From: a virus | Strand: one strand, 5' to 3' | Virus record (IMG/VR): IMGVR_UViG_3300042820_000065 | Location: 4,934 to 68,933 of that record | DNA: 64,000 nucleotides | In this document: piece by piece, positions 25,834 through 63,721 of the stretch | Position numbering within the stretch: the first letter of the stretch is position 1 | Layout: every line of letters starts with the position of its first letter | Notes under the pieces: generated by a model | What the model was told of the DNA's origin: nothing | The model's input: the letters and a program-made list of their open reading frames with translations, nothing else | Databases searched by the model: none | Made by a program: the position numbers and the translations under genes

Positions 25834-25922
25834 TGTACGCGATGTTTCCGCAGGACTCAATCTCTGCTAATGTTCCTCGTACGAAGAGAGAGTATGGACG
25901 TTGCGGAAACATCGCGTACACG
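25834..25922. repeat. Inverted-repeat element A (ori/att-like)
   Basis: tgtacgcgatgtttccgca (25834-52) and its exact reverse complement (25902-20) flank an AT-richer core; homologous to 63603-63721. Confidence 0.85.
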
Positions 25923-25966
25923 GCTCGGTCTTCGGTCCCGATGTTCTACGAATTGAGGCTCCTGCG

Positions 25967-28378
25967 ATGTCCCTGCAAGCCCTGGATTACGAAGGCTCCA
26001 CTCCGTTCCGACAGGCAGCGATGGCGCTGTGGAAGTCCGGATGGAGCAACCCCCTGCCGATCGGGAACGGCAAGAGCCTCCCGCCAGCGGGCTACACGGG
26101 ATACGAGGGTCGCTCCGTCTCCTGGCCGGATCTTCAAGCATGGCTCGACGACGAGAGCACCCCGCCGAACGTAGGCATCCGGCTACAGCAGACCGTCGTC
26201 GGGATCGACGTGGACGCCTACGACGACAAGCAGGGCGCGAGCACGATCCTCCTGGCCGAAGAGACGTTGGGAAACCTGCCCGCCACGTACACCAGCACGT
26301 CCAGAGGGCCCGATCAGCCGTCCCGGATCCACTTCTACAAGGTGCCGATCGGAACGTCCCTGAAGGGGGCGGAGCGGCGTTTCGTTGAGGCGTTCGGAGC
26401 GGACGTCGAGATTATCCACTTCGGTCATCGGTATGCCGTCGTCGCGCCGTCGATCCACCCTCGCACCGGCGCGGCCTATTGCTGGTACGACAAGAACGGT
26501 GACGCACTGAAGGACGTCCCGCCGATGGACGCCATTCCGGACCTGCCGCAGCCCTGGCTGGCTGTCTTCATCACCCCATCGGAAACCGCATCATCGCATC
26601 CGAGCGACGAAGAGCGACGCTTCACGGCCCAGGCGGCAGCGTCCTGGGTCGAGAGATATGCTCTGGCGAAACTTCGGAATGCACGGAACGGTGAGATTAA
26701 TACCAGGGTCAATGAGGCCGGTGCGGTGTTCTCGCACTTCGTGCCGCTGTTCTATTCGCAAGGCGAAGCAGAGCAGATGATCTGGGCCGCTCGGGCTGAA
26801 ACTGTCGCTGATGAGGCGACGGAGGATCGTGATCGCGGTTCGATGCGCTCTGGTCTCAGTACCGAGGGATGGAAAGCGACCAAACAAATTGAAGTGGACG
26901 ATGAAGTGTCTGCTGTCGATTTCTTTACTGATGCCAGACTCGGTCCTGAATTCGCGAAGGATCGTCTGGTTGGTAAGTACAAGTTCGCCAACAAAATGTG
27001 GCTGAAATGGGACGGCCGTCGCTGGGCCGAATGCACTGAGGATGCCGCTCTGGAAGAGGCCCGCGATTGGGTGGCCGGTCGCATGGAGGGTGCCGTACGG
27101 AAGATGCGAGACGGTGCTCCCTCTCGTCCGGACGGTAAGAATCTTATCGACTGCTGGAAAACGTTCATGAAGTTGGAGAGAGTGAAGGCCGTCCTTCGCC
27201 TGAGTCGTGGCGTCCCCGGCGTTGCCGCTTCGCTGGCCGACTTTGATAGGAATCGGGACATCCTGAATACCGCGTCCGGTATCGTCAACCTTCGCACCGG
27301 AGAACTTGCCCCGTCCGACCCGAAGGCAATGTGCATGAAGTTGGCTCCGGTTCGCTACGTAGCCGGAGCCGAGAGCAAGTCGTGGACGAAAGCCCTGGAG
27401 GCGGTTCCGGAGGACTGCGTAGATTGGTTCCAGATTTTCATGGGCCAGGCGATCACTGGTTACGAGCCGACCGAAGACCGACTGCTCGTCATGCAAGGAT
27501 CTGGCGAGAACGGCAAGACGTTGGTGTTATCGCTTGGGATCCGAAACGTGATGGGCGATTACTACACCGTTCTGGACGATAAGGTTCTTCTCGGCGAGCA
27601 GGGCAGTGGTCCAAGTCCTGAACTGATGGCGTTGCGCGGCGCTCGTATCGCCGTGCTGGAGGAGACGCAAGAAGCCCGGCATCTCGATACGCAGCGATTG
27701 AAAAAAATCGTCGGCACCGGAGTCTTGACCGGCCGCTATCTGTTCAAAGACACCGTTACGTTCGACACGTCGCACACGATGATCATCAACACGAATTATC
27801 TGCCTCGGGTGAAAGAGAACGATCGAGGAACGTGGCGTCGACTTATGACTCTTCCTTTTCCGTACACGTACGTCAAGGGGAATCATGAATTACGTGAAAA
27901 TCAGCGCGTAGGTGACGTGAAATTGAAATCGAAACTCAGTAGCGACGAAGCAAAAGAGGCAATCCTTGCGTGGTTGATTGAAGGTGCGAAACTCTGGTAC
28001 CAGAACGACAAGCAGATGGACGATGAGCCGAAGCGCGTAGAGGAAGCGACGACGAAGTGGCGGGCTGAGAACGATGTCGTCCTTTCATTCATTCAGGCTG
28101 GCATCATCGAGCCGAGCATTGGGAGCCATGTGCTTTCTACGGATCTTCTAACGGCCGTTAACGGTTACCTACGAGAGCAGGGCGCTCACGAATGGACGGA
28201 CAGACTGATGGCTGATCGCTTCGGCAATCATCCAATGATGGTGAATTCGCGTGTCGAGAAGAAGCGCGTTCGAGTGAATTCACCATCAGCCGGTCCGCTA
28301 TCTCGTCCAGTTCAGGCCCACGGCCTGCCGCCGACGAGCGGGACGTACGTCGCCTGGATCGGTCTGAAGTTCGCGTGA
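25967..28378 (+). CDS. Bifunctional primase/polymerase (Prim-Pol) fused to a P4/D5-like SF3 helicase
   Basis: N-terminal NVGI..GIDVD.YD..G..T..S..HFY. C-terminal D5_N region, Walker A GSGENGKT, VLEET and INTNYLP. Confidence 0.88.
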   Translation: MSLQALDYEGSTPFRQAAMALWKSGWSNPLPIGNGKSLPPAGYTGYEGRSVSWPDLQAWLDDESTPPNVGIRLQQTVVGIDVDAYDDKQGASTILLAEETLGNLPATYTSTSRGPDQPSRIHFYKVPIGTSLKGAERRFVEAFGADVEIIHFGHRYAVVAPSIHPRTGAAYCWYDKNGDALKDVPPMDAIPDLPQPWLAVFITPSETASSHPSDEERRFTAQAAASWVERYALAKLRNARNGEINTRVNEAGAVFSHFVPLFYSQGEAEQMIWAARAETVADEATEDRDRGSMRSGLSTEGWKATKQIEVDDEVSAVDFFTDARLGPEFAKDRLVGKYKFANKMWLKWDGRRWAECTEDAALEEARDWVAGRMEGAVRKMRDGAPSRPDGKNLIDCWKTFMKLERVKAVLRLSRGVPGVAASLADFDRNRDILNTASGIVNLRTGELAPSDPKAMCMKLAPVRYVAGAESKSWTKALEAVPEDCVDWFQIFMGQAITGYEPTEDRLLVMQGSGENGKTLVLSLGIRNVMGDYYTVLDDKVLLGEQGSGPSPELMALRGARIAVLEETQEARHLDTQRLKKIVGTGVLTGRYLFKDTVTFDTSHTMIINTNYLPRVKENDRGTWRRLMTLPFPYTYVKGNHELRENQRVGDVKLKSKLSSDEAKEAILAWLIEGAKLWYQNDKQMDDEPKRVEEATTKWRAENDVVLSFIQAGIIEPSIGSHVLSTDLLTAVNGYLREQGAHEWTDRLMADRFGNHPMMVNSRVEKKRVRVNSPSAGPLSRPVQAHGLPPTSGTYVAWIGLKFA

Positions 28379-28407
28379 TGGACTGGGTCTACAACTTCCT
28401 GTAGACT
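28379..28407 (+). promoter_or_regulatory. SigA-like promoter of the conjugation operon with an overlapping palindrome
   Basis: TGGACT-N17-TAGACT. GTCTACA-N6-TGTAGAC inverted repeat at 28387-28406. Confidence 0.55.
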
Positions 28408-28429
28408 CTGCAACTCAACGACGAGGGAG

Positions 28430-28711
28430 ATGCCCATGCACGCCGCGACCATACTTGCCAAGACTCCGAATATTGACCTGAACAGCGGCATGGATACCGT
28501 TCGGCTGCTGGCGATTGCAGCGCTTGGTGTCGCCCTGATTGTTGTGTCCGTGGCTGCCGTCTTCACGGCGGGCCGCCGGGGCAACGCGAGCAAGGGCGCA
28601 AGCATCGTCGGGACCGTCGCGCTCTGTCTGATCCCGGCCGGACTCGGCACCGGCATCATCGCCATCGCCTTCGGTCGGGCCCTGATCGGTCTTATCGGCT
28701 TCAGCGCGTGA
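28430..28711 (+). CDS. Small hydrophobic T4SS protein (pilin/VirB2-like position)
   Basis: GAGGGAG RBS; 2-3 TM segments; first gene of the operon leading to VirB4. Confidence 0.5.
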   Translation: MPMHAATILAKTPNIDLNSGMDTVRLLAIAALGVALIVVSVAAVFTAGRRGNASKGASIVGTVALCLIPAGLGTGIIAIAFGRALIGLIGFSA

Positions 28712-29220
28712 GCCTGCGCCAGGTCGCCGATGGGGCTGCGAGGCAGATGAAACGGGTGTGGCTCGGGCCGAAAGGGATGCGTTGGCCGTTCGATGCGACG
28801 TTCGTTCAGTTCGGCGTGGGCGTGCTGTTCGTCGTGGCCTACTTCTTCCTGCTCTGGCTGGTCGTGCCGCCGGTCATTGCGGTCGGGGTGGCCGTGTGGC
28901 AGTTCAGCACCCGGCTGGCCCGCCTCCTCTCGGCCGAACATGAGGTGCGTACTCGGCGTCTCCTGGCCGGTTCCTGCTGGCTCCTGCTGGTCCTCCTGGC
29001 CCCGAACCCGTCCCTCTGGGTGTTCCCCATGCCGTTCTGGCTCGCCGGTCCGGCAGCGGCCATCCTCGGCGTCCTGAGCGTGCGTCAGGTCGGTCGCTTC
29101 ATCGACTGGAACCGGCCGGTCGGGTACTGGCTCGCGATGCCCCGGCGCGTCGCGGCCGGGCCCCGGCTCCGGCCGGAGCGAGAGATCAATCCCGAAGCCC
29201 TGCGACTGGAGGAATCATGA
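28708..29220 (+). CDS. TcpE/VirB3-like conjugation membrane protein
   Basis: W.GP..MRWPF..TFVQFG N-terminus, multiple TMs, immediately upstream of VirB4. Confidence 0.6.
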   Translation: MSLRQVADGAARQMKRVWLGPKGMRWPFDATFVQFGVGVLFVVAYFFLLWLVVPPVIAVGVAVWQFSTRLARLLSAEHEVRTRRLLAGSCWLLLVLLAPNPSLWVFPMPFWLAGPAAAILGVLSVRQVGRFIDWNRPVGYWLAMPRRVAAGPRLRPEREINPEALRLEES

Positions 29221-31781
29221 GGAGAGCGACGCCGAAGCCATTCATGCTCGCGCCGGAAACGAAAGAGATCATCGACAACCTGATGCTGCTGCGGGATGGC
29301 CGGGTGCTGGCCGGTTACCGCATCGGCATCCAGCGCTGGGACTACACCGGAGACGACGAGAAAATCAACCGGATCCAGTCGGCCGCTGACGTTTACGGTG
29401 CCCTGGGTGGCCGCTTCTTCCACGAGCGGGTGACGACCCGCCCGCATCCGGTCCGCGATTGGGCTGCCGCTCTGGACCGGCGCACACCCAACCCTCTACC
29501 TCAGGTCGATGGTTGCGACGAGACCTGGAACCGGCACCTGGCGCGGATGCAGGCCCGCATCGCCTCAACCGGTATGGACGACAAGTTGGTCTTCCGGTAC
29601 TTCAGCGTCGGGACCGTGTCGCCGAAAGCGCACCTGCGGGACGGAACTGACGATGCGGTGATGGCGGCCTGGGTCGAGGAACGACGCCTTTCCGACATCG
29701 TGTCCGGTTGGAACGGACGCCGGATGACCGTTCGGGAGCAGGCGTGGCTGCGAGCCCGCAGCCTGGCCCCCGGAGTGCATCCGGACGCGAAGAACTATGA
29801 CGGACCGTGGCGCGAATCGTCCCTCCCCGCCCTGTCGAATGATGTCCGCTGGAGCGAGGAGCCTTTCGACCGGACCGTTGCGATCCGTGCGTGGCAGGAC
29901 GGGATGCGGCAGGATCGGGCGGTTCAGGTGCTCACGGTCAGCCGCATGGACGACCTGCGCTACCCCGACAGCGGACTGGAGCCGTGGCAGACCTACGCCG
30001 AGCGGGCCGTCGATGCTGACGGTCGCCCGTTCGGTGTCGAGTGGTCGATCGTCGGGTATTTGAAGACCGGCCAGGAGATCAAGGGCGCGGCCGAGATGGA
30101 CCTGCGGAAGGCCATCTACCTGGAACAGGACTACCGCGATCATCAGGAGCCACCGCCCGCATCGATCGAAAAGGGTATCGGCGTAGCGAAATCCACGCGG
30201 GATCAGGTGACCGAAGGCAACGCGACGGTCGCGGGCCGGTTCGTCGGCACGATCAACGTGCTGATCTCGGGCGAGGCTCAGTATCGGGACAGGCGGATGG
30301 TCAAGTCGGCTGCCGACGTCGTCGAGGAACGGTCTGCTGCGTTCGTCCGGCTCTACTCCGGCAACGACCTGCGGATGGAATTCACTGCGGCGCGGCCACA
30401 ATCGACGAAGTTGATCGAGACGATCGTCGGCGAGCCGCACGATCGGTTCTTCAATCAGCAGCAGGTCAGGCTCGATTACCTCGCAGCCGGTCTCCCGTCC
30501 GTCTCTACCGCAGTCGGTGACGGTGCCGGTCCCTACCTCGGCTACACGCGGGGCGCGGCCCGGCGGCCGTTCATGCACGACAGCCATTACGCCACGGAAG
30601 GGCGCGGAAACCTGGGGCGTGGCAACAACATGTGGCTCATTGCCGGAGCGCTCGGGTCCGGCAAGACGATGCTCGCGGGTAGCATTATCTACCAGGCGGC
30701 CCGGCGGAACGAGCGGTGTATCTTCTCCGACCCGTCCGGCCCGATGGCGAAACTGTGCAGCCTGCCGGAACTCGCTCCCCATTCGCAGGTGATCGACCTG
30801 TTGCAGGGTGACGACGGAATTCTCAACGTTCCCAGTCTCATTCGCGAGCCATGGGCCACGGAGTACGACAAGGAAGGGGAATGGGGCCGGGCCGTCGACC
30901 GGGCCAAGGCCGAGCGCCGTGACCTCGTCGTCGACATCGCCCGCCGGTGTCTCGATTCGGATCAGTATGCCGACCCGACGACGCTCGCCGTCCTGAGGGA
31001 GGCGGCCAGGAGAGTGGACTGGTACGCCACGAAGTCGCTCTGGGATCTGGTCGACCAACTGAACCTGGACGAGTCGCCTGCGGCGCGCGCGGTGGCCGCC
31101 TCCCTGGCCGACGCTTCTCAGGCCCCGTTCCTGCGACTGCTGTTCCCTCCACGCGGCCGGATCGGTACGGCGCAACAGTTCTCAGTGATGGACAAGCGGT
31201 TCACGGTCATCTGCACGCCCGGTATCACCCGCGCTCCCGATGGCGTGCCCCGCTCGGACTGGACCGACAAGGAGAAGGGCGCGGACGCGATCCTGCGGCT
31301 GGTGGCCCTGTTCACGGACCGGCTGATCTATACCAAGCCCCGTGACGAGCGGTGCGTTGTGATCTTCGACGAGGCCGAGAGCCTGACCGATTTCGGCCCC
31401 GGCCGGGGCTTCCTGTCCCGGCTTGGCCGCGACCATAGCAAGTGGAACACGGCCGTCTATCTGTGCGTGAAATCCATTAGCGAGCAGATGCTTTCGGGGG
31501 AGTTGAGGAACTTCCTGGCCGGTGCCTGGGTCGGGCGGATGGCGAATATCGATGCCGCTACGGACATGCTGAACGTGCTGAACGTCGCGGATCGCAAGCA
31601 TGCCCGCTCGCTGATGCGGCTGTCCGAGTCGGCCCCCGGCGAGTTCGTGCATCTGGATGCCGACGGCAACGTCGGTGGCGTCCGGATCGATCTCGACTAC
31701 CATCCCCGACTGAAGGCCGCACTCCTGACCAATCCGATGCCCGATGGTGTCGACGGCTGGAACACGGAGGTGACGGTGTGA
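29217..31781 (+). CDS. virB4: VirB4-family conjugation ATPase (TcpF/ConE-like)
   Basis: 854 aa. Walker A AGALGSGKT, FSDPSG, Walker B VVIFDEAE, GRDHSKWN..V...SI and C-terminal LDADGNVG.V.ID match the Gram-positive VirB4 layout. Confidence 0.88.
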   Translation: MRRATPKPFMLAPETKEIIDNLMLLRDGRVLAGYRIGIQRWDYTGDDEKINRIQSAADVYGALGGRFFHERVTTRPHPVRDWAAALDRRTPNPLPQVDGCDETWNRHLARMQARIASTGMDDKLVFRYFSVGTVSPKAHLRDGTDDAVMAAWVEERRLSDIVSGWNGRRMTVREQAWLRARSLAPGVHPDAKNYDGPWRESSLPALSNDVRWSEEPFDRTVAIRAWQDGMRQDRAVQVLTVSRMDDLRYPDSGLEPWQTYAERAVDADGRPFGVEWSIVGYLKTGQEIKGAAEMDLRKAIYLEQDYRDHQEPPPASIEKGIGVAKSTRDQVTEGNATVAGRFVGTINVLISGEAQYRDRRMVKSAADVVEERSAAFVRLYSGNDLRMEFTAARPQSTKLIETIVGEPHDRFFNQQQVRLDYLAAGLPSVSTAVGDGAGPYLGYTRGAARRPFMHDSHYATEGRGNLGRGNNMWLIAGALGSGKTMLAGSIIYQAARRNERCIFSDPSGPMAKLCSLPELAPHSQVIDLLQGDDGILNVPSLIREPWATEYDKEGEWGRAVDRAKAERRDLVVDIARRCLDSDQYADPTTLAVLREAARRVDWYATKSLWDLVDQLNLDESPAARAVAASLADASQAPFLRLLFPPRGRIGTAQQFSVMDKRFTVICTPGITRAPDGVPRSDWTDKEKGADAILRLVALFTDRLIYTKPRDERCVVIFDEAESLTDFGPGRGFLSRLGRDHSKWNTAVYLCVKSISEQMLSGELRNFLAGAWVGRMANIDAATDMLNVLNVADRKHARSLMRLSESAPGEFVHLDADGNVGGVRIDLDYHPRLKAALLTNPMPDGVDGWNTEVTV

Positions 31782-33613
31782 GGCGCATCCGGATCGTCAT
31801 TCTCGCAGCCCTGGCTGCCGTCCTACTGCTCGCCTTCACCGCCCCGTCGGCGAAGGCCGTCGGCATTCCTGGGATCGACCTGTGTCCGAAGACGGCTCCG
31901 TTCGCAGCCTTGCCGAACGAGGGCCTGATCGGTGTGGTCGGTGAACAGCCGCAGCAGATCAGCAGTTTCAGCACATCGACCATCTGGTCAAATGGTGGAT
32001 TCGCCGGAATGTATACCACCCCATACGATCTCGGGTGCGCAGCGAACCCGGCGTCGTATCTGAAGTTGGGGTCGGCGAAAGCCAATGCGGCCACGACGAA
32101 CGCGATCCTCGGCGTCGGCTACATGGCCACGTCCGTCACGGACTCGATCGACCGACGGGCCTGGGCCCCGCAATGGATCGGTGCCTTCCTGGGCGACTTC
32201 ACGAGCCGAGCGACCGACGTCATCAGCACGAAGATCATCTATCCATTGCTCGGACTGGGCCTGATCGTCTCGTCCTGCTACATGCTGATCCGTTTCCGGG
32301 GCGGCAACGTGGCCGGAGCATCGTCTGCCGTCGGGTGGGTCTTCATCGTCCTGGCCCTCACCGCATTCGTCATCATCAGCCCCGTCTTCATCTCCTCCAG
32401 TACGCAGCGGGCCGGTGATATCGCGGTCTCGACTCTGAATGGTGGTGATAATGCATCGGATTCAACGACCGATCGAATCGTTGAGGCCGTCCACTATCAG
32501 GGCTGGCTACGCCGTACGTTCGGAACTGCCGATTCGCCGGTCGCGAAGAAGTATGGCCCGAGCCTGCTCGCGTCGGAACGTATCTCCTGGGCCGAACTCG
32601 CCTCGAACAACGATCCGGACGAGATCAAGGCATTGCGGACCGAAAAGGCCAAGCAGTTCAAGGAAATCGCTGCCAACGTCAAGGATGAGGATCCGGGCGC
32701 GTACCGCTGGCTGACCGGCGAGGCGGACGGTTCCGGCATCGCCCTGACGGAAACCCTGTACGCGCTGACGGCGTCGTTCTTCCGGTTCGCCGTCGACCTC
32801 CTGCTCGTCATGGCCACCATCCTGATCGCCATCCTCTGCCTGGTCTGGCTGGCCGGATCGCCCTACTTCGTGACCCCGTTCGGTCGGATAACCGCTGTCG
32901 GGGTACTGAATTCGACGGTCCGGTCGGTCGTCTACGTGCTTGAGGCGGCCGTCGGGTCCTGGCTGTTCGGGATCTACATGCAGGTCTCGATGCAGCCCGG
33001 CCAGAGTACCTGGTGGTCAATCCTGCTCCTGTTCGTCGGGACGCTGACGGCATGGACACTGATCCGGCCGGACCGGAAGATGCTCGCGCTGGCCACGATG
33101 GGCCATGTTCGCGGCCACGGCCGGATCGTCCGGCTCCTGACGACGATGGCGATGGCTTACCTCGGCGGTCGTACGGCAGGACGGGCTGCGGCCCGGCAGT
33201 TCCAGGAGGAGGAGGTCGACATCACGCCCGGCCGCAGCGAGGACTACGTCGCTGCTCCGCTGGGCCAGCCGGTCCACGTCCGGGTCCGGCCGGTCATGGC
33301 CGACGAGCGGGGCATCGACTCTCCGGCGGCTCCGGCGGGCGTGGTCGAGGGCGAGGTCATCTGGGACTCGGCGGACATGCCGACCCTGCCGAGCGGCGAC
33401 GTCTATCAGCGACCGCTCGCGCCGGACGGGCCGATGCCGACGCCTCCTCCGGCCGGTTCGCTCGGCGAGGTCGAGGTCTATCAGCGACCCACGCCGGTTC
33501 ACGAGGATGATCAGTACGTAACATGCCCTTGGTGCCACGGCAACGGCTGCGGCCATTGCGAATATGATGGCGTCATACCGAAATGGGTGCGGGATCAGGT
33601 GAGTCCGGAATGA
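31778..33613 (+). CDS. VirB6/TcpH-like polytopic membrane protein
   Basis: Signal-like N-terminus, about 7 TM segments, Pro-rich cytoplasmic tail; follows VirB4. Confidence 0.7.
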   Translation: MRRIRIVILAALAAVLLLAFTAPSAKAVGIPGIDLCPKTAPFAALPNEGLIGVVGEQPQQISSFSTSTIWSNGGFAGMYTTPYDLGCAANPASYLKLGSAKANAATTNAILGVGYMATSVTDSIDRRAWAPQWIGAFLGDFTSRATDVISTKIIYPLLGLGLIVSSCYMLIRFRGGNVAGASSAVGWVFIVLALTAFVIISPVFISSSTQRAGDIAVSTLNGGDNASDSTTDRIVEAVHYQGWLRRTFGTADSPVAKKYGPSLLASERISWAELASNNDPDEIKALRTEKAKQFKEIAANVKDEDPGAYRWLTGEADGSGIALTETLYALTASFFRFAVDLLLVMATILIAILCLVWLAGSPYFVTPFGRITAVGVLNSTVRSVVYVLEAAVGSWLFGIYMQVSMQPGQSTWWSILLLFVGTLTAWTLIRPDRKMLALATMGHVRGHGRIVRLLTTMAMAYLGGRTAGRAAARQFQEEEVDITPGRSEDYVAAPLGQPVHVRVRPVMADERGIDSPAAPAGVVEGEVIWDSADMPTLPSGDVYQRPLAPDGPMPTPPPAGSLGEVEVYQRPTPVHEDDQYVTCPWCHGNGCGHCEYDGVIPKWVRDQVSPE

Positions 33614-34122
33614 GAAAACTGGTCAATTGGATCTTCTACTCGAAAGAGAATCTGACCCTGGCCTTCGTTACCATGATCACCGTCATGGCCGTGGCCTTCC
33701 TGGTGTTCGTCCTGATCCAGATCCCGAAAGGTGGAGGGGCCGGTTCGCCCGTTTATCCGACCGCGACCGCCCGGCCCATCCACACCGAACTCATCCCGCC
33801 GACGACGGAGGCCCTGCCGACGATCACGAAGTCGTACGGCCCGTCCCAGCCGATCGCGCTGGAGGCCGCAGACGCCTTCCTCTCGCACGATCTGATCCGG
33901 TTCGGACGGGTGGCTCTGCCTGCTGCCGTTGAGGCCGTCAGCGACGCGCCAGAGCCTCCCGCTGCCGCCCGGGACGTGACCGGCCCGGTCGTCGTCCGCC
34001 AGGGCGGCACGACGCAGCAGACGGACGAGATCCCGACGTCCGGAGGCATGCTTCAACTGGTCATGGTGATCTCCGGCGGCCGGTGGCAGGTCAGCATGAT
34101 CCGATACGCCCCGCTGACCTGA
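33610..34122 (+). CDS. VirB8/TcpC-like bitopic protein
   Basis: Single TM, Pro/Thr linker, then an NTF2-like domain ending L.MV..GGRWQV. Confidence 0.5.
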   Translation: MRKLVNWIFYSKENLTLAFVTMITVMAVAFLVFVLIQIPKGGGAGSPVYPTATARPIHTELIPPTTEALPTITKSYGPSQPIALEAADAFLSHDLIRFGRVALPAAVEAVSDAPEPPAAARDVTGPVVVRQGGTTQQTDEIPTSGGMLQLVMVISGGRWQVSMIRYAPLT

Positions 34123-34166
34123 GCGGATAGACTGGGAAGCCCAGACCAAAAGACAGGGTGGACCCA

Positions 34167-34694: not shown

Positions 34695-34704
34695 GGGCTG
34701 ATCA

Positions 34705-54301: not shown

Positions 54302-54302
54302 T

Positions 54303-56313: not shown

Positions 56314-56488
56314 TGGAAGAGACGGCGGCCGGGATCGAGGCCCGGTATGCAGGACGACCGCAGGAAATGGCGGCCTATTTCGCCCAGGAGCGGAAGCGGA
56401 TCATCAGGCAGGCCCGGTGGTCGATCGCGGCAACGATCGCCATCACACTGCTCGCGACCGGTCTGCTCGTTCTGCTCGCCATCGGGGC

Positions 56489-56523
56489 TTGACGCGAGCC
56501 TACAGGTGGTGCATAATAGTCAC
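56489..56523 (+). promoter_or_regulatory. Conserved phage promoter
   Basis: TTGACG-N17-CATAAT-AGTCAC. Confidence 0.8.
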
Positions 56524-56669
56524 AACGGAATCGACCGGGAGACGCACTAGTCCTCGGCGAGACCAGGCCCCGGACCGACCAGACTACAGGGCGTGCGAGT
56601 CGCCTATGGGGCGCAACGTGCAGGACGCAGTCGTGTGCGGTGGTTTCGTTACTACGGAAGGAGAATCGC

Positions 56670-57101
56670 GTGGCACTCGATCCATTGGAAGTTCTCTCGC
56701 CAGAGGCCCAGGCCCGGTATGCTGCCATCGGCGCGGCGGCCCAGGCCCTGCGATCGGTCCGGATCATGCCAGGCGGCATCGGGCCGGGCAAGGCGGTCGG
56801 CGAGACGCAGGCGTGGGAGGTTACTTACGTGGCCGAGTTCATCCTGAACGGACCGGCCAGCGACGAGGAGCACCTCTCCGAATCGATCGAAGAACTGCGG
56901 GCTCAACTCGTCGCTGGAAACGAGCGGCGCGAGCACGACGCGGCCGACTGGAATCAGGACAACCCGAGGCCGAAGTGGCAGACGATCGGCAAGCGGGCCC
57001 CGAAGGTCGACGATCGGCCGACGCAGGCCATGGATGAGATTCCGGAGAGCGAGCGCTTGCCCCGGCCGGTTCGGCCCATCAAAGACAGCCCGCAGGCTTA
57101 G
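56670..57101 (+). CDS. Hypothetical protein
   Basis: AAGGAG RBS before GTG. Confidence 0.55.
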   Translation: MALDPLEVLSPEAQARYAAIGAAAQALRSVRIMPGGIGPGKAVGETQAWEVTYVAEFILNGPASDEEHLSESIEELRAQLVAGNERREHDAADWNQDNPRPKWQTIGKRAPKVDDRPTQAMDEIPESERLPRPVRPIKDSPQA

Positions 57102-57112
57102 GGAGCATTCGC

Positions 57113-57385
57113 ATGAGTGAGGAATTCGTCGAGTTGCGCGAAGAGGGTTACGCGATGATCGCGGGCGAGCGCTGCCCGGTCGTCGGTGTGCATCTCTGCA
57201 AGGGGACCGTGTCCCTCCGGGTCATTGTTCCGGCCGGATTCAAGGGCTGTAAGGATGGCGCGATCACGCTGTTCGGGCACGACGACAAGGGGATCGCTCA
57301 GATCCCCGAATCGATCGATCTACCGCCGGTCTCGGGTGAGGATTCGTTCGGCGTTCTGGAAGTGCCACTCGGAACGATCTCATGA
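57113..57385 (+). CDS. Hypothetical protein
   Basis: GGGAG RBS. Confidence 0.5.
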   Translation: MSEEFVELREEGYAMIAGERCPVVGVHLCKGTVSLRVIVPAGFKGCKDGAITLFGHDDKGIAQIPESIDLPPVSGEDSFGVLEVPLGTIS

Positions 57386-57693
57386 TCGTCACGTTCGGGC
57401 TGAGCCACAATGCGCAGGACGGAACGAACCTCGCGAATCGCTTCGTCGATCTGGGAACGTCCGGAGACGATCACTTTTCGCGGCTACGGGCCATCATGCT
57501 GTTCGGTCAGGAGTGGGCGTTCCTGTACGACACGGAAGCGGATGCCGGAGTGGGCATGTACGACTTGACCCAGTACGTCGTGCCGAAAGGCTGGCTGGCC
57601 CACTCGGTTCCGGCACATCGGGACGGCAAGCCATGCGATACGTGCATGCGACTCAGTCATGGCGTGAGGTTGCAAGGGAGCGGTATGAGGTGA
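57382..57693 (+). CDS. Hypothetical protein
   Basis: ATGA coupling. Confidence 0.5.
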   Translation: MIVTFGLSHNAQDGTNLANRFVDLGTSGDDHFSRLRAIMLFGQEWAFLYDTEADAGVGMYDLTQYVVPKGWLAHSVPAHRDGKPCDTCMRLSHGVRLQGSGMR

Positions 57694-57920
57694 CATGACT
57701 TCGGGATAGGAGTGAATCAGGGGGGCGACTGTAATCGATTCCCCTGATTCACTCTCCCGTTCTCCGAAGGCGCGTCAACCTCTCCGCCGGATTCCAAGGT
57801 CCGGAAGTACGGAATGGATGGTCAGAGAGATGGAGTGGCCTGCCGCGACCTGAAACCCTTGGCTCCCCAGGGGCATGACCTGACCAGCGCGTGATGCGGC
57901 GGGATGCATACCGTCAGCAC

Positions 57921-57963
57921 CGGCCCGGCCCTTGACTCACGAGGGGCCGGGCCGCTTCTGTTT
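57921..57963 (+). terminator. Intrinsic terminator
   Basis: cggcccggccc / ggccgggccg stem followed by cttctgttt. Confidence 0.7.
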
Positions 57964-57996
57964 GACATGGCCTTATGTTCGGTGCATAATGGTCAC
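57962..57996 (+). promoter_or_regulatory. Conserved phage promoter (leaderless)
   Basis: TTGACA-N17-CATAAT-GGTCAC-ATG. Confidence 0.85.
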
Positions 57997-58292
57997 ATGA
58001 TTGATGGACATTGGTGGGCGCAGGCATGGCCCGCGTTCGTGATGGCTGGGCTGGCCGTCCTGTGCTTTTGGCTCGGGCGTAGACTCAGCGAAAGGGTTGA
58101 TCCGAAATGACTATCGTCCTGATCTCGCTCATTCCGACCGCTCTGATGAGCAGTGCGTTGGCGTACATGCTGCTGCACATCCACAACGGACGCGTGAAGC
58201 ACAGGGAGCGGATGTTGAACCTACAGGCCGGTTCTGCTCTGAATCGGCACCTGCGAAATTCGAAAGCCACGAAAGATCGCGACGCGGCTTGA
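57997..58292 (+). CDS. Two coupled small membrane proteins (57997-58110 and 58107-58292)
   Basis: One TM each; leaderless start, then ATGA coupling. Confidence 0.5.
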
Positions 58293-58323
58293 CTTATTCC
58301 CCAGCCTAGTGCATGATAGTCAC
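58289..58323 (+). promoter_or_regulatory. Conserved phage promoter (leaderless)
   Basis: TTGACT-N17-CATGAT-AGTCAC-ATG. Confidence 0.8.
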
Positions 58324-58367
58324 ATGAACCGGATAATATTTCGGATCATTCCAGACCGACGAGGGAG

Positions 58368-58700
58368 ATGCGCATGCTGGCTGAAGTGACCGAGGCGATT
58401 GCCGAGGCGCACGGGTTCGACATTGCCATGGCGGTCGAGATCGGCGTCGTCCTGACGAACGCCCTGCTGTTTCTGGCCACCGTCATCACCGCGCTCTACA
58501 TGCGCAACGAGGCCCTGCGTCACCGGGTCGAGTCACAGGCGCAGCACGATCAACACGAGGAGCACATCGTGGACGGGATCGAGGCGCACGACGCGGCCGA
58601 ACTGGCGCGGATGGCGCGGATCATCGAGAAGGTGATCGATGACCAGAAGGCTTCCGGGCACGTCATTGACGACGGCGTGCCGAATCTGCGCTCGGCCTGA
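58368..58700 (+). CDS. Single-TM hypothetical protein
   Basis: GAGGGAG RBS. Confidence 0.55.
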   Translation: MRMLAEVTEAIAEAHGFDIAMAVEIGVVLTNALLFLATVITALYMRNEALRHRVESQAQHDQHEEHIVDGIEAHDAAELARMARIIEKVIDDQKASGHVIDDGVPNLRSA

Positions 58701-58712
58701 TCCGTTCCGTCA

Positions 58713-58753
58713 GTCCCGCTCGGCCTTCGGGCCCGGCGGGGCTTTCGGTTTTT
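58713..58753 (+). terminator. Intrinsic terminator with UUCG loop
   Basis: cccgctcggcc-ttcg-ggcccggcggg followed by ctttcggttttt. Confidence 0.8.
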
Positions 58754-58780
58754 AGGGCGCGGCGGCATCCGGATGATGGC

Positions 58781-58816
58781 TTGACAACTCTTCTACAGGT
58801 GGTGCATAATAGTCAC
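58781..58816 (+). promoter_or_regulatory. Conserved phage promoter (leaderless)
   Basis: TTGACA-N18-CATAAT-AGTCAC-ATG; 28 bp identical to 44429-44456. Confidence 0.85.
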
Positions 58817-58918
58817 ATGACGACGACACGGATCCCCATCCCCTGGTTCATCTTCTGGACCATCGGACTCGTCGGGTTCATCAAGATCCGTATTAACAAC
58901 CACTAGAAAGGGAACCTC

Positions 58919-59900
58919 ATGTCCAAGACGTATCGGGTCGCGAATCCGGAACGAATCCAGCGGGTGATGCACCTGCGTTCCTCGAACGCTGCCGTGCCGA
59001 TCCCGTCCCGCAAGTCGGCCACGCGCCGAGCCAACACGAAAAGCGCCGTACGAACGGCTCTACGGAAGGAATTCGCATGAGCGAGGCAACGGAATCTGTG
59101 GCCGTGACACTGATCAATGCAATGGACTCGGCCAGCGGGTTAGAGTCGCAGTTCCGGGTGGACGACGATCCGGACGACGACGTGCGCTCCGGAGGAACGA
59201 TTTTCGGAATGATCGACGACGAGACGGGCGAGCGGTTCGACGTCATCGTCTCGCGGTCGGACCGGTGAACGGCTCCGTGCCCGGCTCGGCGCTGGGAGCG
59301 AAAGAGGATGACGTCGTGGACTTGCTGACTCTGCGGCTGATGAACTACCGCAAGCGTTTCTATGCCGACGGGAGGGCGGAATTGCAGGATACGCGGGGAG
59401 TAGCGCGCGAGATCGTTCGGAATGTAGCGGCTGTCCTCGCGGAAGGGAAGGCTCATGACGGCGCTCGGTAAGAACCAGATGGGCATGTTGCTTCTGCTCG
59501 AACTTCACGGTGGATTCTGGCACGACGGGTGCGGCTGGGTGAATGTGAACCGGTCCAACACGGAACGGCTACTCGCTACGCTCGAATCGCGCGGCCGGGT
59601 CACGTCGGAGCCGTATTACGGTTCGTTTCGGGTGTACCGCAAGATCGAGGACCTTCCGTTCGATGTCTGGAACGCATGATGGCGAGGGTCCGACAGGACG
59701 TGTGGATTTGCGACGCGCCGGAATGTGATTATGAGGAACTGGCGACCGATGAGCCGCCATCGGGTTACTCAGGTGTGGTTTCGGAGCGCGCCGGGACTGG
59801 TGTGCTGAAAGAGCCCTGGTATGCATGCTGCCGGGATCACATCACGCCCGCGATCGTGGCCGTGAGCAAGGCGGCTTACGATCGCGGGTGGATGGCTTGA
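58919..59900 (+). CDS. Run of coupled small ORFs (58919-59080, 59077-59268, 59265-59471, 59455-59679, 59676-59900)
   Basis: Overlapping start/stop codons; 53-74 aa each; the first is basic (RSSNAAVP..RK). Confidence 0.5.
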
Positions 59901-59931
59901 CACCCGGCTCCATCTAGTGCATGATGGTCAC
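59897..59931 (+). promoter_or_regulatory. Conserved phage promoter
   Basis: TTGACA-N17-CATGAT-GGTCAC. Confidence 0.85.
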
Positions 59932-59959
59932 ACGAGCAGACGAGATCACTGGGAGCGTC

Positions 59960-60460
59960 ATGAACAAGAAGGACCTGAAGGTCGGCGAGGTTTACGCCTA
60001 CTCCAGCAAGCGAAGGGACAACCCGTGCGGTCGCCTGACTCCGGTTCGGCTCATCGGGATTGACGAAGAAATCGTGGTCAGGAGGTGGCTGGACGGGTCG
60101 GTTAATAAGGCGAAAGGAATCGCCGTCGAGCAGGTCGATCCGGAGACGTTCGAGCCGCTGGAAACGCGACGACCGTTCCTGATCGATGGTCCGGCTCGCC
60201 TCTGGCGGACCTGGGCCGAGCAGGTCTCTCATGGCGCGGCGGAGAAGGAGGCGCGCCTGAAGAAGATGGAGGAACAGGCCGCTCGTCGTGCGGCCGACGA
60301 GGCTGTCAATGCAGGGCTCTGGGCCGATATCGAGTATATGATCGGTCGGGAGAAGGTCGAGGAATTCGAGGAGTCCTATCGGGACGAGCCGAACGTAACG
60401 CTCCGGATCTCGGCTGCTCGGTTGCTGGAACTATTGAGGGTCGCAAGGGGGCGTGCCTGA
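59960..60460 (+). CDS. Hypothetical protein
   Basis: GGGAG RBS; MNKKDLKVGEVYAY SH3-like start. Confidence 0.6.
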   Translation: MNKKDLKVGEVYAYSSKRRDNPCGRLTPVRLIGIDEEIVVRRWLDGSVNKAKGIAVEQVDPETFEPLETRRPFLIDGPARLWRTWAEQVSHGAAEKEARLKKMEEQAARRAADEAVNAGLWADIEYMIGREKVEEFEESYRDEPNVTLRISAARLLELLRVARGRA

Positions 60461-60687
60461 TGAATGTGACGATCGCATGGAGCGACTGGCGTATCCGAAC
60501 GTCGGCGACGCAATGATGCTGGACGTTAGGGATGTGCTCTGGCTGCTGAAGGCTGCCGACGTGGTTGATCCTGCCATCGAAAACGGCTCCGGACGACTGC
60601 ACTGCATGCGATCGTCTCGGATCGGCTCCCGATCGAAGGATGGCTGGGAATCAGGCCAAGACGTACGCGGGCGTGCGGGAATGGCTC

Positions 60688-60722
60688 TTGACACCGGACG
60701 ACTGATAGTGCATGATGGTCAC
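60688..60722 (+). promoter_or_regulatory. Conserved phage promoter (leaderless)
   Basis: TTGACA-N17-CATGAT-GGTCAC-ATG. Confidence 0.85.
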
Positions 60723-61019
60723 ATGCCGAAGGAAACCTGCGACACGCACAACATGACGACAACGGAGATCAGCAAGACGGTAGCGATGGAACTGGTGGAC
60801 CGGACGGCCCGGATGAACAGAACGGGCCGTCTGGGCACCCCCTGCGGCTCGATCAACGGCTACTCGCTCGCGGAGGCGCTCTCGACGATCGAACGCGGGA
60901 CGGCCTTTCATACCGGGACGTGGGGAGCATTCCCCGTGCTCTACGTCGACACACCGCACGGTGAACACGTCTGGTACCTCAATCTCCGTGTCGCGCCGAT
61001 CAACCCCTGGGAGTCCTGA
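60723..61019 (+). CDS. Hypothetical protein
   Basis: Leaderless ATG, in frame with the longer ORF from 60453. Confidence 0.55.
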   Translation: MPKETCDTHNMTTTEISKTVAMELVDRTARMNRTGRLGTPCGSINGYSLAEALSTIERGTAFHTGTWGAFPVLYVDTPHGEHVWYLNLRVAPINPWES

Positions 61020-61165
61020 TGCCCGACACACTCCTACTGGCAATGGCGCTAGCACCGCTGGGAACCCTCTTCTTTTCTACCGGTCGGCACTACATGGAAA
61101 TCGGGACGCTCGCCCCGGGCGAGTCCAAGACGATCCCCTGGCCACCAGCCGACTGAACGGTACAG

Positions 61166-61202
61166 ACGAACCCCCCGGATGCTTCGGCACCGGGGGGTTC
61201 GT
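61166..61202. terminator. Bidirectional terminator between convergent blocks
   Basis: acgaaccccccgg-a-tgc-ttcg-gca-ccggggggttcgt. Confidence 0.8.
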
Positions 61203-61262
61203 TATGTCTAGCGCTTCTCGCAGGCGAGGACGATGCTCGGAAGGATTCTCGTGTCGGCCAGG

Positions 61263-61622
61263 CTACCTGGTCGGATGCTTCGGCCGCTTCTGGTTGCAGG
61301 AGCGATGGACGATCCGATCCCCCTGGCTGGCCGAGTTCTGCCAGAGCGGGATCGTGTGGTCGAGATCGAGATCGTCGGCCTGTTCCATGACCTCGTTGCA
61401 AAGGGGGCACGACTTGCCGTAGGCGCGCGGGAGCAGCCGCTTGCGCATCCGATCGTGCTTCTGGTCATAACCCCGCTGCTGGCGGGTACCCCTGCGGGCC
61501 TCAAACTCGGCCAGGTGAGGGGGGCAGCGGCTCTGCCCGGCCGGAACGACGATGGGGCAGAGCCGGTCATTTCCGTCATCGGTACGGATGAGTTCGACGC
61601 ACGTCCGCTTAGCCCTGGCCAT
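61263..61622 (-). CDS. HNH endonuclease (terminase-associated gp74-like pattern)
   Basis: C..H....RGT..QRGYD..H...R...CPLC...LDHT...H.SCN. Confidence 0.8.
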   Translation of the reverse strand: MARAKRTCVELIRTDDGNDRLCPIVVPAGQSRCPPHLAEFEARRGTRQQRGYDQKHDRMRKRLLPRAYGKSCPLCNEVMEQADDLDLDHTIPLWQNSASQGDRIVHRSCNQKRPKHPTR

Positions 61623-61772
61623 CGTATTCCTCCCATTCGGTCAGGAGAGATCGGAGCAGACCGCTCAGGGCGACCTGAGTTGAATCGTGATCGTTGGTCG
61701 TAATGATCGAGCCGATCAGGAGCGGTTCCTCGTCTCCGATGCCGATGTAGATCGGGATCTCTCGCGCGTCCA

Positions 61773-62345
61773 TCACGCGTCCCCTTTCAGCCGTGCCGCG
61801 AATGTAGTTGCGCTCAGGTTCGTGATGCCGGAGCCTCTGACGTAGTCGCAGCCGTTCTCGAATGAACCGTCGACCCAGTGGCCCATGAGCACTCGCGAAA
61901 TGCCGTCAGCGTCCCGCTGGTAGCCTCTGACGAGCACTGAATCGACGGCCTCGGGCGGCTTGTGACCGGCCTGGATACGAACCCGCTGATCATCCATGTT
62001 CGGCTCATTCTCCTGCCAGATAATGGCCCGTTTCTGCGTCCCGTCCGCATTGACCGGGTAGCCACGTGCGTACGTCACGATCAGGGTCAGGTCTGGATTT
62101 CCGATGATGGACTTAGCAGCCGAATTAGCACCGGATGGCATCTTGCAGGCCGTCAGGGTCGGCCAGGCAAGGCCTCTCACGCGACCCGTCCTGGTGTAGG
62201 CGATTTCGGGCTCGACCTTGACGGCGCGAACGATCGGAGGCAAGACAACGGGCGGGGCGTACGGCTCGTGCTCGGCCGCCCATCGCCTTGCCTCTCGTGG
62301 CTCCGCGCCGAAAGGCAGCGGAGGAATCACTTCGTAACCGGTCAC
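61773..62345 (-). CDS. Hypothetical protein
   Basis: Coupled to the HTH gene. Confidence 0.55.
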   Translation of the reverse strand: MTGYEVIPPLPFGAEPREARRWAAEHEPYAPPVVLPPIVRAVKVEPEIAYTRTGRVRGLAWPTLTACKMPSGANSAAKSIIGNPDLTLIVTYARGYPVNADGTQKRAIIWQENEPNMDDQRVRIQAGHKPPEAVDSVLVRGYQRDADGISRVLMGHWVDGSFENGCDYVRGSGITNLSATTFAARLKGDA

Positions 62346-62647
62346 GCCGGGGCCCGGTCGAGATCTCCGGGCTTACTGGCTCCGGCCCGGCCGATGCCCG
62401 CATTCCACCAGTCGAGGATTTCGACCCATGAATAGATGCCTCCCATGGACACCTGCGTGATCGGGGTCGGGAATCCATTCTTCTGCGTGTCCCGCCGGTT
62501 GATCCAGGTCGAGATGTTGGACCGGGTGATTTCCTTGCCCGCGTGCTTACTGAGCCGGTCCGCGATCTCGGCCACGCCGATCAGGTCCATCGCGGTCACG
62601 TCGTCGATCTCGGCCACTTCCGTGATGTCGTTACTGTATGTGCTCAT
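62342..62647 (-). CDS. AlpA/excisionase-like HTH DNA-binding protein
   Basis: LIGVAEIADRL..TRSNISTWINR..FP.P..IYSW.EI..W; GGAGG RBS. Confidence 0.75.
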   Translation of the reverse strand: MSTYSNDITEVAEIDDVTAMDLIGVAEIADRLSKHAGKEITRSNISTWINRRDTQKNGFPTPITQVSMGGIYSWVEILDWWNAGIGRAGASKPGDLDRAPA

Positions 62648-62683
62648 GTGGTGCCTCCATGTGGGCAGGGATCTCCTGGCTCC

Positions 62684-62718
62684 GTGACCATCATGCACGT
62701 ATTGGTGACCATTGTCAA
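62684..62718 (-). promoter_or_regulatory. Conserved phage promoter for the HTH gene
   Basis: TTGACA-N17-CATGAT-GGTCAC. Confidence 0.85.
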
Positions 62719-62735
62719 CGCGGAGCGGGTGTATC

Positions 62736-63347
62736 TCAGGCCATTGGGTTACTGAGCGTAGTCATGATGTGGGCCGGAAGCGGGTCCACCGTGATCACTC
62801 TGGGTTGATATACGCGCTGGATCGCCGCGTGAGTGAGTGCCCCGGACGGACTGTCCGGATGCGTCTCCGAGTACCACTCACCCGCGTGGATTACGCGCCC
62901 CTGCGAGCGCCGGAACCGGGCACCGCGTACGCGGCCCGCAGCCGTCACGCGGTGAGTGTGGATCACGCACACGCACTCGGCCGTGCGTGAGTGAGTGTCG
63001 GTGAGTGTGCGTGAGTGAGTGTCGGTGAGTGAGTGAGTGTCGGTGAGTGAGTGAGTGTCGGCGTGTGAGTGAGTGTCGGTGAGTGAGTGAGTGTCGGCGT
63101 GTGAGTGAGTGTCGGTGAGTGCGTGGTCGTCGGTGAGGACCCAGAAGGCGCTCAGACCCTTCACGCGCGGGGCTCTGGCCCACACCTGGCCGGTCCGGGT
63201 CCACTCGGTCCCGTCAGGCTCGATCTGGGTCCACGAAACGGTCTGCGGATCGCCTCCCGTGGTCACTTTCTGGGCGTGCGAGAGAACATAGGGCTCGGCC
63301 GTCCGGATCCGAGAGGGCCAGTTCGGGTCTCGATGCCTTGAAACCAT
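62736..63347 (-). CDS. Hypothetical protein with His/Thr/Asp hexapeptide repeats
   Basis: AGGAG RBS 6 nt before the ATG; HSLTDT/HSHADT repeats. Confidence 0.55.
   Translation of the reverse strand: MVSRHRDPNWPSRIRTAEPYVLSHAQKVTTGGDPQTVSWTQIEPDGTEWTRTGQVWARAPRVKGLSAFWVLTDDHALTDTHSHADTHSLTDTHSHADTHSLTDTHSLTDTHSRTLTDTHSRTAECVCVIHTHRVTAAGRVRGARFRRSQGRVIHAGEWYSETHPDSPSGALTHAAIQRVYQPRVITVDPLPAHIMTTLSNPMA
62983..63132 (+). repeat. G/T-rich 18-bp tandem repeat, 7 units plus 1 degenerate
   Basis: Units end GAGTGAGTGTCG and are built from (GTGA)n. Confidence 0.92.
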
Positions 63348-63602
63348 GATCAACTCCTGTTTTATGCGGTCGAGTTGTAAAGATGTGGCGATCCTAGCGC
63401 AGGGGCCGAAAGGACCGCTAGAGGCGAAGATGATCTTCAGGCTCCTCGGCCAGGCTCTGACCTGCGTGTTCAGAGTGTGTACGCGTTGTACTGGATGCTC
63501 AGGAACTTTATAAATCCGGACATAATGACTCTACTACTCGTAGGGTCTGACCTGGGTATCATGCGGTTTACCCCCAACGATTCACATAATGGGGCATAAG
63601 GG

Positions 63603-63721
63603 GGCAGTTCCAAGATCATGTGCGCGTTGTTCCCGCTTCTTCCCTACTTTCGTAATGTTGCTTGCACGAAGAGATAGTTCGGGTTCATCGGAAACATCGC
63701 GTACACGATCTTGGAACTGCC
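63603..63721. repeat. Inverted-repeat element B (homologue of element A)
   Basis: 33-bp arms (63603-35 / 63689-721, 4 mismatches) around a 53-bp AT-richer core. Confidence 0.88.

Follow-up and report, generated by a model that had tools for sequence, protein, structure and literature searches.

Which function could preserve two homologous inverted-repeat elements at widely separated places of a phage genome, one of them directly before the gene of a primase-helicase? The question is raised by a 64,000-nt stretch of viral DNA (the window hereafter; bases 4934-68933 of the 76,061-bp IMG/VR record IMGVR_UViG_3300042820_000065), in which element A (25834-25922) and element B (63603-63721) had been pointed out by an earlier note as brackets around the whole non-virion half of the genome. 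Three options were offered there: a two-part replication origin comparable to that of phage P4, start and stop sites for DNA transfer, or recombination sites whose use would release a circle of 37.8 kb. With confidence that is about evenly balanced, we read A and B from their sequences as two cis-acting sites of a replication origin system of the kind represented by pRN1, by ori and crr of P4 and by oriL and oriR of SPP1. The anatomy of the elements, its conservation and covariation in related phages and the domain architecture of the protein encoded next to A are direct observations and are described first; positions refer to the window unless the record is named.

Anatomy of the two elements

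Element A is intergenic and ends 45 bp 5' of the primase-helicase ATG at 25967. Its left arm, TGTACGCGATGTTTCCG (25834-25850), is a perfect 17-nt inverted copy of positions 25904-25920 in the right arm, CGGAAACATCGCGTACACG (25904-25922), and the arms enclose a plus-strand core of 53 bp (25851-25903, 52.8% AT) in which lie a central motif, GTTCCTCGTACGAAGA (25872-25887, plus strand, dyad axis at 25877), and an extended -10-like box, TGCTAATGT (25865-25873, plus strand). The folding energy of the A hairpin is -46 kcal/mol, with a z-score of -6.4.

Element B, also intergenic and in direct orientation with respect to A, is built in the same way and has longer arms. Its left arm (63603-63635) consists of a perfect outer part of 15 nt, GGCAGTTCCAAGATC, and of a degenerate inner part, 63617-63635, in which 15 of 19 positions agree with the right arm (63689-63707); the right arm as a whole (63689-63721) starts with the same 19 nt as the right arm of A and continues with the outer sequence GATCTTGGAACTGCC. 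Owing to the outer 15-bp perfect inverted repeat (63603-63617 and 63707-63721) the arms of B extend to 33 nt and are 88% complementary. The plus-strand core (63636-63688, 56.6% AT) again measures 53 bp and carries its central motif, GTTGCTTGCACGAAGA, at 63657-63672 (plus strand, dyad axis at 63662). The features by which the earlier note had recognised A and B as homologous are therefore all present: the inverted arms, the 19-mer identical at 19 of 19 positions (25904-25922 and 63689-63707), the equal 53-bp spacers and the string TAATGTT-N6-ACGAAGAGA at equal offset (25868-25889 in A, 63653-63674 in B). Its description of both elements as intergenic, in direct orientation and AT-rich in the core, with A just before the primase-helicase gene, is likewise borne out; the AT content of the genome is 37.7%, and the two cores are about 57% identical to each other.

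A third, unpaired arm-like site, which the note had mentioned as a further degenerate arm near B, lies at 63476-63494 on the plus strand, about 125 bp 5' of B and in left-arm orientation; it agrees with the arm at 13 of 19 positions, and its first nine bases, GTGTACGCG, are exact. With three or fewer mismatches allowed, the arm has three matches in the window against 0.04 expected, and none of 100 shuffled sequences reached three; the entire 76,061-bp record holds no arm copies beyond those of A and B. The 17-mer of the arm and the core motif in three versions gave chance matches only when searched for in viral_contigs, metagenome_contigs and genome_contigs. The viral and metagenome matches have no flanking inverted repeat, and their GC content is mostly unrelated and lower; the 16 matches in genome_contigs were dismissed solely on their scattered, non-actinobacterial taxa. 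The 20-mer of the L015 arm had no match in metagenome_contigs, a collection that does not include the L015 record.

The centres of A and B (record 30810 and 68595) are 37,785 bp apart, and the remainder of the record amounts to 38,276 bp. The record is linear, 62% GC, without terminal repeats and estimated to be 98% complete; if it is complete and circularises, A and B would stand almost exactly opposite each other on the circular form. That the elements bracket the whole non-virion half of the genome holds only approximately: outside the interval are about 7.4 kb of early genes on the far side of B, including those for a DEAD-box helicase and a DUF7178 protein, and a further 2.5 kb or so at the record's left end.

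Several other features that had suggested themselves in and around the elements were rejected. An arm-like 12-nt match at 37719-37730 in a small gene is a coding coincidence, the ortholog in the related record L015 keeping the window-like sequence and not its own version of the arm. An open reading frame (ORF) starting from the ATG within TAATGTT in A, B and L015 might have encoded a conserved leader peptide; this ATG is absent in L017 and L111. A promoter of the extracytoplasmic function (ECF) sigma type (GGAAAC-N17-GTC) in the right arm is inconsistent across B and L017. An origin from a transposon or a miniature inverted-repeat transposable element is unlikely, given that there are no target-site duplications and that the copies occupy syntenic positions in two phages and have diverged in place.

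Conservation and covariation in related phages

Protein searches returned only two close relatives of the primase-helicase, P0002 (81% identity) and P0003 (48%). An A-type element is found 24-45 bp 5' of the orthologous primase gene both in L015/L016 (81% identical protein) and in L017 (48%), and it is absent from the more distant primases (35-38% identity; L018, L019). The genes neighbouring the element in L017 differ, with genes resembling those of a type IV secretion system (T4SS) located upstream of the element and primase and not downstream as here, so that the gene content following A is not conserved.

The B locus is marked by the small gene 3' of B, gene 101 (63797-64000 and on to 64066 past the end of the window, plus strand; about 89-92 aa). 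A search with this gene found orthologs, and two of the records, L111 and L110, carry a B-type copy 5' of the ortholog. L111 comes from the same sample as L016, which represents the phage of L015, and L110 from another sample. The two-site layout is therefore conserved in a second phage. The arms of the L111 copy measure 35 nt and are 97% complementary; the L110 record (56,875 bp) ends inside its B-type element.

Comparison of the five elements reveals what is kept and what is free to change. The asymmetric central motif GTTnCTnnnACGAAGA is invariant at 12 of 16 positions and the dyad axis falls on its sixth nucleotide in all five, with spacers of 41-53 bp; the AT content of the cores ranges from 53 to 65% against 38% for the genome. 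The arms are lineage-specific and yet complementary (TGTACGCGATGTTTCCG here, CGTGTTCCGAGTGTTGCCAG in L015, GGGCAGGCTCGGACGGGTA in L017): of the 17 arm positions common to all, 16 are paired in four or more of the five elements, at least two types of Watson-Crick pair occur at 10 positions and three types at 3. Within the phage of L015 and L111, the A-type and B-type arms differ at one internal position (A vs G), and each base is compensated on its own opposite arm. All copies fold more stably than shuffled sequences (z from -5.4 to -10.1), the two strands equally so.

The third site adds information of another kind. At the aligned position of L111 there is a site that carries L111's own version of the arm. 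Four positions are unambiguously diagnostic of one phage or the other; at three of them each third site has the base of its own phage, and at none does it have that of the other phage. The identity of the right arms of A and B, together with a third site that follows the arm version of its own phage, indicates that sequence recognition is needed besides pairing, which points to a putative phage-specific, sequence-reading factor that acts in trans.

The plus-strand block that abuts B on its 5' side (63545-63602) contains the boxes CTGACCTG and CATAATGG and is about 88% identical to L111 despite the divergence of the adjoining arms. At the B locus of L112-L115, lineage-specific iteron arrays take the place of B, and no close relative of this primase clade was found on the contigs of these phages (25.7 kb and 74.6 kb). 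This distribution fits a B locus that may be a protein-binding hub whose specificity tracks the replication module.

The repeat arrays of that locus lie at L112:2139-2277, L114:2283-2448 and L115:2153-2339. Four copies of AAATCCTGCCCC / GGGGCAAGATTT form inverted pairs with 38-44 bp spacers in L112, and four direct repeats of about 25 nt recur every 52-57 bp in L115. All relatives examined have a box CTCTGACCTGCG 5' of their hairpin or iteron array (L017:9868; L111:696 and 775; L112:2301; L114:2190 and 2332; L115:2178), as does the window (63455-63466 and 63545-63556), and the reverse complement of the box, CAGGTCAG, sits 5' of A in L015; the box may be the site for a factor conserved among these phages.

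The adjacent primase-helicase as candidate reader of the arms

The gene that follows A (25967-28378, plus strand) encodes an 803-aa protein of the P4 primase family composed of Prim-Pol, D5_N and superfamily 3 (SF3) helicase (DUF5906) domains, and this protein is our candidate for the reader of the arms. Its Pfam matches are PF09250, PF08706 and PF19263; it is assigned to PHROGs phrog_1156 at 7.9e-111 and passes the NCBIfam model of the P4-family primase C-terminal region, TIGR01613, with 160 bits against a cut-off of 108.7. The matches in the PDB are to the helicase region of the PrimPol C962R of African swine fever virus (ASFV).

Residues 701-803 (28067-28375, plus strand) are predicted to form a winged-helix domain that resembles the origin-binding domain of P4. 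In an AlphaFold model of the last 179 residues the predicted local distance difference test (pLDDT) is 86-92 over most of the terminal domain. When residues 701-803 were compared with 48,161 chains by VIA-align, the first rank was taken by the RFX DNA-binding domain (Z 9.7) and the third by the phage P4 origin-binding domain 1KA8 (Z 6.8, root-mean-square deviation 2.5, 77 residues), followed at lower ranks by the Orc1/Cdc6 winged helix bound to origin DNA and by the C-terminal regions of the ASFV and NrS-1 PrimPols; Foldseek concurs on the winged-helix fold, with weak E-values. Between P0001 and P0002, which belong to phages with different arms, the winged helix is the most diverged domain, at 65% identity; the values for the other parts are 90% (Prim-Pol), 83% (linker and D5_N) and 79% (helicase). 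The resemblance to 1KA8 is one of fold, seen in a predicted model, and we regard the winged helix 701-803 as a candidate reader of the arms.

A possible two-site replication origin

The sequence of events that we would expect at such an origin is as follows; binding, melting, priming and replication activity are here what we infer from the sequences. The C-terminal winged helix of the Prim-Pol/SF3-helicase encoded next to A would recognise the arms, the third copy beside B being a further predicted binding site. Helicase rings would assemble head to head on the inverted arms, perhaps aided by extrusion of a cruciform or stem-loop, the AT-rich core would melt and the Prim-Pol domain would begin synthesis on the exposed conserved motif GTTnCTnnnACGAAGA, which possibly serves as the priming template. 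As A heads the primase operon and may double as the primase promoter, binding at A would also autoregulate the gene. B, with its longer arms and the extra site, could be a second origin; alternatively, it could serve as an auxiliary site or a barrier similar to P4 crr or SPP1 oriR. A bolder version of this proposal, which we consider improbable as it stands, would make these elements a distinct cruciform-origin class of bacterial Prim-Pol/SF3 replicases, in which the apical GTTnCTnnnACGAAGA templates a sequence-specific DNA start, the fast-evolving arms set replicon specificity through the winged helix and the opposed copies act as the start site and a programmed barrier or switch site.

A number of points weigh against an origin function. 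The evidence on covariation comes from only five elements of three lineages that are kin by descent, so that the counts given above rest on few independent events, and template-switch mutation can also maintain the perfect symmetry of a quasi-palindrome without selection on pairing. What ties the winged helix to the arms is a correlation, and the reader could instead be a ribbon-helix-helix (RHH) protein (39391-39570) or the product of the small ORF 62342-62647; the latter, guessed to be Xis-like, matched no Pfam or NCBIfam family. Units of 9 nt that might be iterons within the arms are clear only in L015/L111 (7 of 9) and weak elsewhere (5-7 of 9 overall), and a period of 11 scores similarly. 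GC skew gives no origin signal. In pRN1, discussed below, in-vitro experiments failed to show that the replicase binds the stem-loop specifically (PMC4234260). Finally, the position of A is precisely the one at which a promoter of the primase operon would be expected, so that a purely transcriptional role, unlikely as we hold it to be, has to be considered.

Alternative explanations

According to the transcriptional explanation, the core would be an extended -10 promoter without a -35 box, the arms would be operator half-sites, and A and B would make up a small regulon controlled by the primase-helicase itself or by another DNA-binding protein that loops or occludes the promoter. A sequence TGnTAnnnT does occur about 80-95 nt 5' of the primase ATG in all three A-type copies (TGCTAATGT twice, TGATAGGTT once), and the 248-bp gap before the primase operon contains no further promoter-like sequence, nor any of the consensus promoters described below; for these two reasons A is a candidate for the primase promoter, and we think that it possibly holds this promoter in addition to its other role. 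The arms, being lineage-specific and accompanied by a third site, would also suit a pair of operator and repressor.

The position of A in the transcription map is compatible with such a role. A follows a GC-rich hairpin on the plus strand (25737-25770), located 3' of the last gene of the lysis cassette (25371-25718), which is probably a terminator without a T-tract that insulates the primase operon from late transcription. A contig from the RNA run stops at 25732, by this hairpin, and the hairpin is kept in L015 with a compensatory change of C-G to T-A; a scan for consensus terminators did not call it, there being no T run. On the minus strand, 25725-25809 resembles ctRNA_pGA1, an antisense RNA by which the rep of a Corynebacterium plasmid is controlled, but the Rfam score of 18.8 bits (E 0.17) stays below the gathering score of 45. 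The match covers the hairpin just 5' of A, and it probably reflects a mere GC-rich hairpin.

The non-virion genes outside the primase operon are driven by a strongly conserved promoter. The consensus cTTGACA-N17-gTGCATgATGGTCAC is nearly invariant and was found in at least 25 copies on both strands (window 44400-63800; record 68000-76061, L021); it serves almost every early transcription unit, with the exception of the primase operon, and often directly abuts the ATG, which implies mostly leaderless transcripts. Neither A nor B belongs to this family, and the consensus scan finds no site of the sigma-70 type in either of them. A member of the family, gTGCATAATGGTCAC (63745-63796, plus strand, -10 at 63784-63789), drives gene 101, probably giving a leaderless transcript, so that B is not needed as a promoter of this gene. 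Moreover, the -10-like box is not kept in the B-type copies, which read CGTAATGT in B, without the TG, and CATTCGTT in L111, and the conserved part is the motif downstream of it. Since B has no TG, L111 has no box and the gene 3' of B has a promoter of its own, a promoter cannot be the function for which these elements are conserved. It would also be unusual for operator half-sites to be separated by 70 bp and to show perfect symmetry over 17-35 bp, and the strict linkage of the element to this primase clade is left unexplained.

At both the promoter 63745-63796 and L111:1000-1030 a TTGAC(G/A) box lies 8 nt before the -10 instead of the usual 17. It is probably not a -35, as the 8-nt spacing is identical in both phages.

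We give rather less credence to a role at the RNA level, in which A and B would be long hairpins of 5' leaders with a conserved apical loop, acting as RNase III processing or stability elements or as sites for an RNA-binding or antitermination factor of the phage in the manner of nutL/nutR and putL/putR. Folding predicts strong hairpins (-40 to -62 kcal/mol, z from -5 to -10), the arm changes are compensatory, and in an inner stem of 4-5 bp one pair covaries and several are G-U on the plus strand. Both copies are oriented in the same way upstream of plus-strand genes, and the box CATAATGG just 5' of B is -10-like. The pattern of substitution, however, betrays no preference for either strand, G-U-compatible and C-A mismatches being about equally frequent and both strands folding equally well. 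Rfam gave no match in the whole window at the gathering score and none in A or B at E up to 1, no convincing promoter is seen 5' of A, and no RNA contig covers A in the single metatranscriptome that holds the phage, in which depth is low. The third site, which follows the arm sequence, and the identity of the two right arms suggest that a DNA sequence rather than a fold is recognised.

A very unlikely explanation is that A and B are used in recombination, as att-like direct repeats that excise the 37.8-kb circle, or in transfer, as oriT-like start and stop sites of a T4SS-like machinery. Their direct orientation, the 19-bp identical stretch and the presence of VirB4-like, lytic transglycosylase and HNH-FtsK genes between them had made both ideas attractive. 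A Pfam scan of the ORFs, in which those below about 90 aa were not all covered, detected no domain of an integrase, resolvase, serine recombinase, transposase or relaxase. No joints at A were seen in contigs from three DNA runs and one RNA run, nor any A/B hybrids in those of the DNA runs, depth being low and contigs liable to miss rare forms; the RNA run gave no informative ends at A. With no recombinase, relaxase or A/B junction found, the excision and transfer options of the earlier note are not favoured. The homology, besides, spans the whole element instead of a short crossover core, arms and cores have diverged in place at syntenic positions in two phages, no target-site duplications are seen, and the order of the T4SS-like genes relative to the element is not conserved in L017. 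The idea that half of the genome is an excisable or transferable unit is accordingly not supported.

That A and B are packaging (pac or cos) sites or genome termini is hardly credible: independent assemblies do stop within the loops (at the end of the L110 record and at the start, 25871, of an X2 contig), but such breaks at long inverted repeats are a common assembly artefact that can be mistaken for termini, the source contig runs straight through A, and A lies in mid-genome and B 7.4 kb from the record end, both far from the putative terminase and portal genes.

Genomic surroundings

The runs that contain the phage are soil metagenomes, and a megablast search of a phage database found no named relative; the host is bacterial, probably an actinobacterium. 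Virion and lysis genes occupy the left 30 kb, with the putative terminase and portal genes, assigned from position and size only, at about 2.5-5.8 kb of the record. The operon 3' of A is 11.5 kb long and begins with the Prim-Pol/D5_N/SF3 protein, followed by a VirB4-like ATPase and a lytic transglycosylase.

In the regions 28436-37450 and 51621-53204, a VirB4-like AAA_10 ATPase, an SLT_3 lytic transglycosylase and an HNH nuclease fused to an FtsK/SpoIIIE ATPase are encoded in what is otherwise a tailed-phage-like genome, together with large proteins without a Pfam match. L015 also has the primase/VirB4-like operon, minus a three-gene insert (34167-36559). An 18-bp tandem array, GTGAGTGAGTGAGTGTCG, of 7.3 copies lies at 63007-63137, within a minus-strand gene (62736-63353) in which it encodes THSLTD-like repeats. 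We rejected it as a set of iterons: it is inside a real gene whose L111 ortholog is 52% identical and lacks the array, which identifies the array as a recent coding expansion.

Comparison with known replication systems

A close counterpart of A is the origin of plasmid pRN1, which forms a stem-loop of about 100 nt (58 nt of them in the loop) and adjoins the gene of the replicase ORF904 (Prim-Pol, SF3 helicase and winged helix). In the relatives of pRN1 the stem structure is conserved and the stem sequence is not, and a mutation of the stem was tolerated only once a second change had restored the symmetry. Bordetella phages BPP-1/BIP-1 were noted by the same authors to have a comparable stem-loop next to their replicase, and assembly of such replicases on a stem-loop was proposed (PMC4234260; PMC3869888). 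Our phage agrees with pRN1 in the domain order of the replicase (archaeo-eukaryotic primase (AEP) Prim-Pol, SF3 helicase, C-terminal winged helix), in the stem-loop of about 90-120 nt which adjoins the replicase gene and has a big loop (58 nt in pRN1, 41-53 nt here), and in that stem pairing is kept and stem sequence is not, with conserved flanks. It differs in that the element lies upstream of the gene and not downstream, in the strongly conserved 16-nt motif at the centre of a loop that in pRN1 tolerates point changes, and in the second copy 37.8 kb away. The identity of the arms between the copies within a genome and the unpaired third copy suggest sequence-specific binding, in further contrast to pRN1, and the carrier is a tailed-phage genome with a bacterial host.

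In satellite phage P4, the crr unit next to the alpha gene has a pair of direct TGTTCAC(C) octamers followed by about 35 bp of AT-rich spacer and by inverted octamers; a second cluster, ori, lies 4.7 kb from crr (NC_001609), and both are bound by the C-terminal origin-binding domain of the alpha primase-helicase. Of the options of the earlier note, the two-part origin of the P4 type is the one that we favour, given the match to TIGR01613, the winged helix, its being the most diverged domain between phages with different arms, the linkage of the element to the primase in three lineages and the two-site layout in a second phage. The systems have in common two separate cis sites with shared repeats, one of them beside the primase-helicase gene, and the arrangement of inverted repeats around an AT-rich spacer, as in crr. 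The protein, like alpha, passes the C-terminal model, and its last domain is predicted to have the origin-binding fold (1KA8); the arm sub-repeats of a relative (GTGTTCCGA / GTGTTGCCA) share TGTTC with the octamer TGTTCACC. The analogy with P4 does not extend to the primase domain, which is here an AEP Prim-Pol (PF09250) and not a Toprim domain, so that the protein is no full-length homolog of P4 alpha. The arms are long and nearly perfectly palindromic in contrast to the loose iteron clusters of P4, and the sites are 37.8 kb and not 4.7 kb apart.

For the possible role of B, Bacillus phage SPP1 is instructive. It has two similarly built origins, oriL and oriR, far apart and bound by gp38, one of them close to or inside the initiator gene, and in the published model the bound second site stalls forks and triggers the switch from theta to concatemer replication (PMC6316719). 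As proposed for our case, a tailed phage possesses two origin sequences made of protein-binding repeats and an AT-rich unwinding element. The initiator gp38 works, however, with a DnaB-type helicase and a loader, the repeats are direct, and there is no sequence relationship. A comparable logic is known from the origins of Staphylococcus aureus pathogenicity islands (SaPI) and other phage-inducible chromosomal islands (PICI), where element-specific iterons flank an AT-rich region beside primase and helicase genes and specificity resides in the variable C-terminal region of Rep. Unlike A and B, the SaPI origins have short hexamer iterons in two sets and a single site per element, located 3' of rep.

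If the origin reading of A and B is right, it would provide a concrete and testable origin for an actinobacterial-type phage family whose replication is unstudied, and for vectors, A combined with the primase gene would offer a candidate minimal replicon. Two closely related phages with different arms and winged helices that are 65% identical would form a ready-made specificity swap. The idea of stem-loop assembly by Prim-Pol/SF3/winged-helix replicases, developed for pRN1, would then extend to a tailed bacterial virus, in which the natural covariation, with arms, third site and binding domain changing together, is cleaner than for pRN1. The kind of element is already known from the systems compared here; of use in this phage are the covariation of arms, third site and domain, the strongly conserved apical motif and, provided that the record is complete and circularises, the location of the two copies almost exactly half a genome apart.

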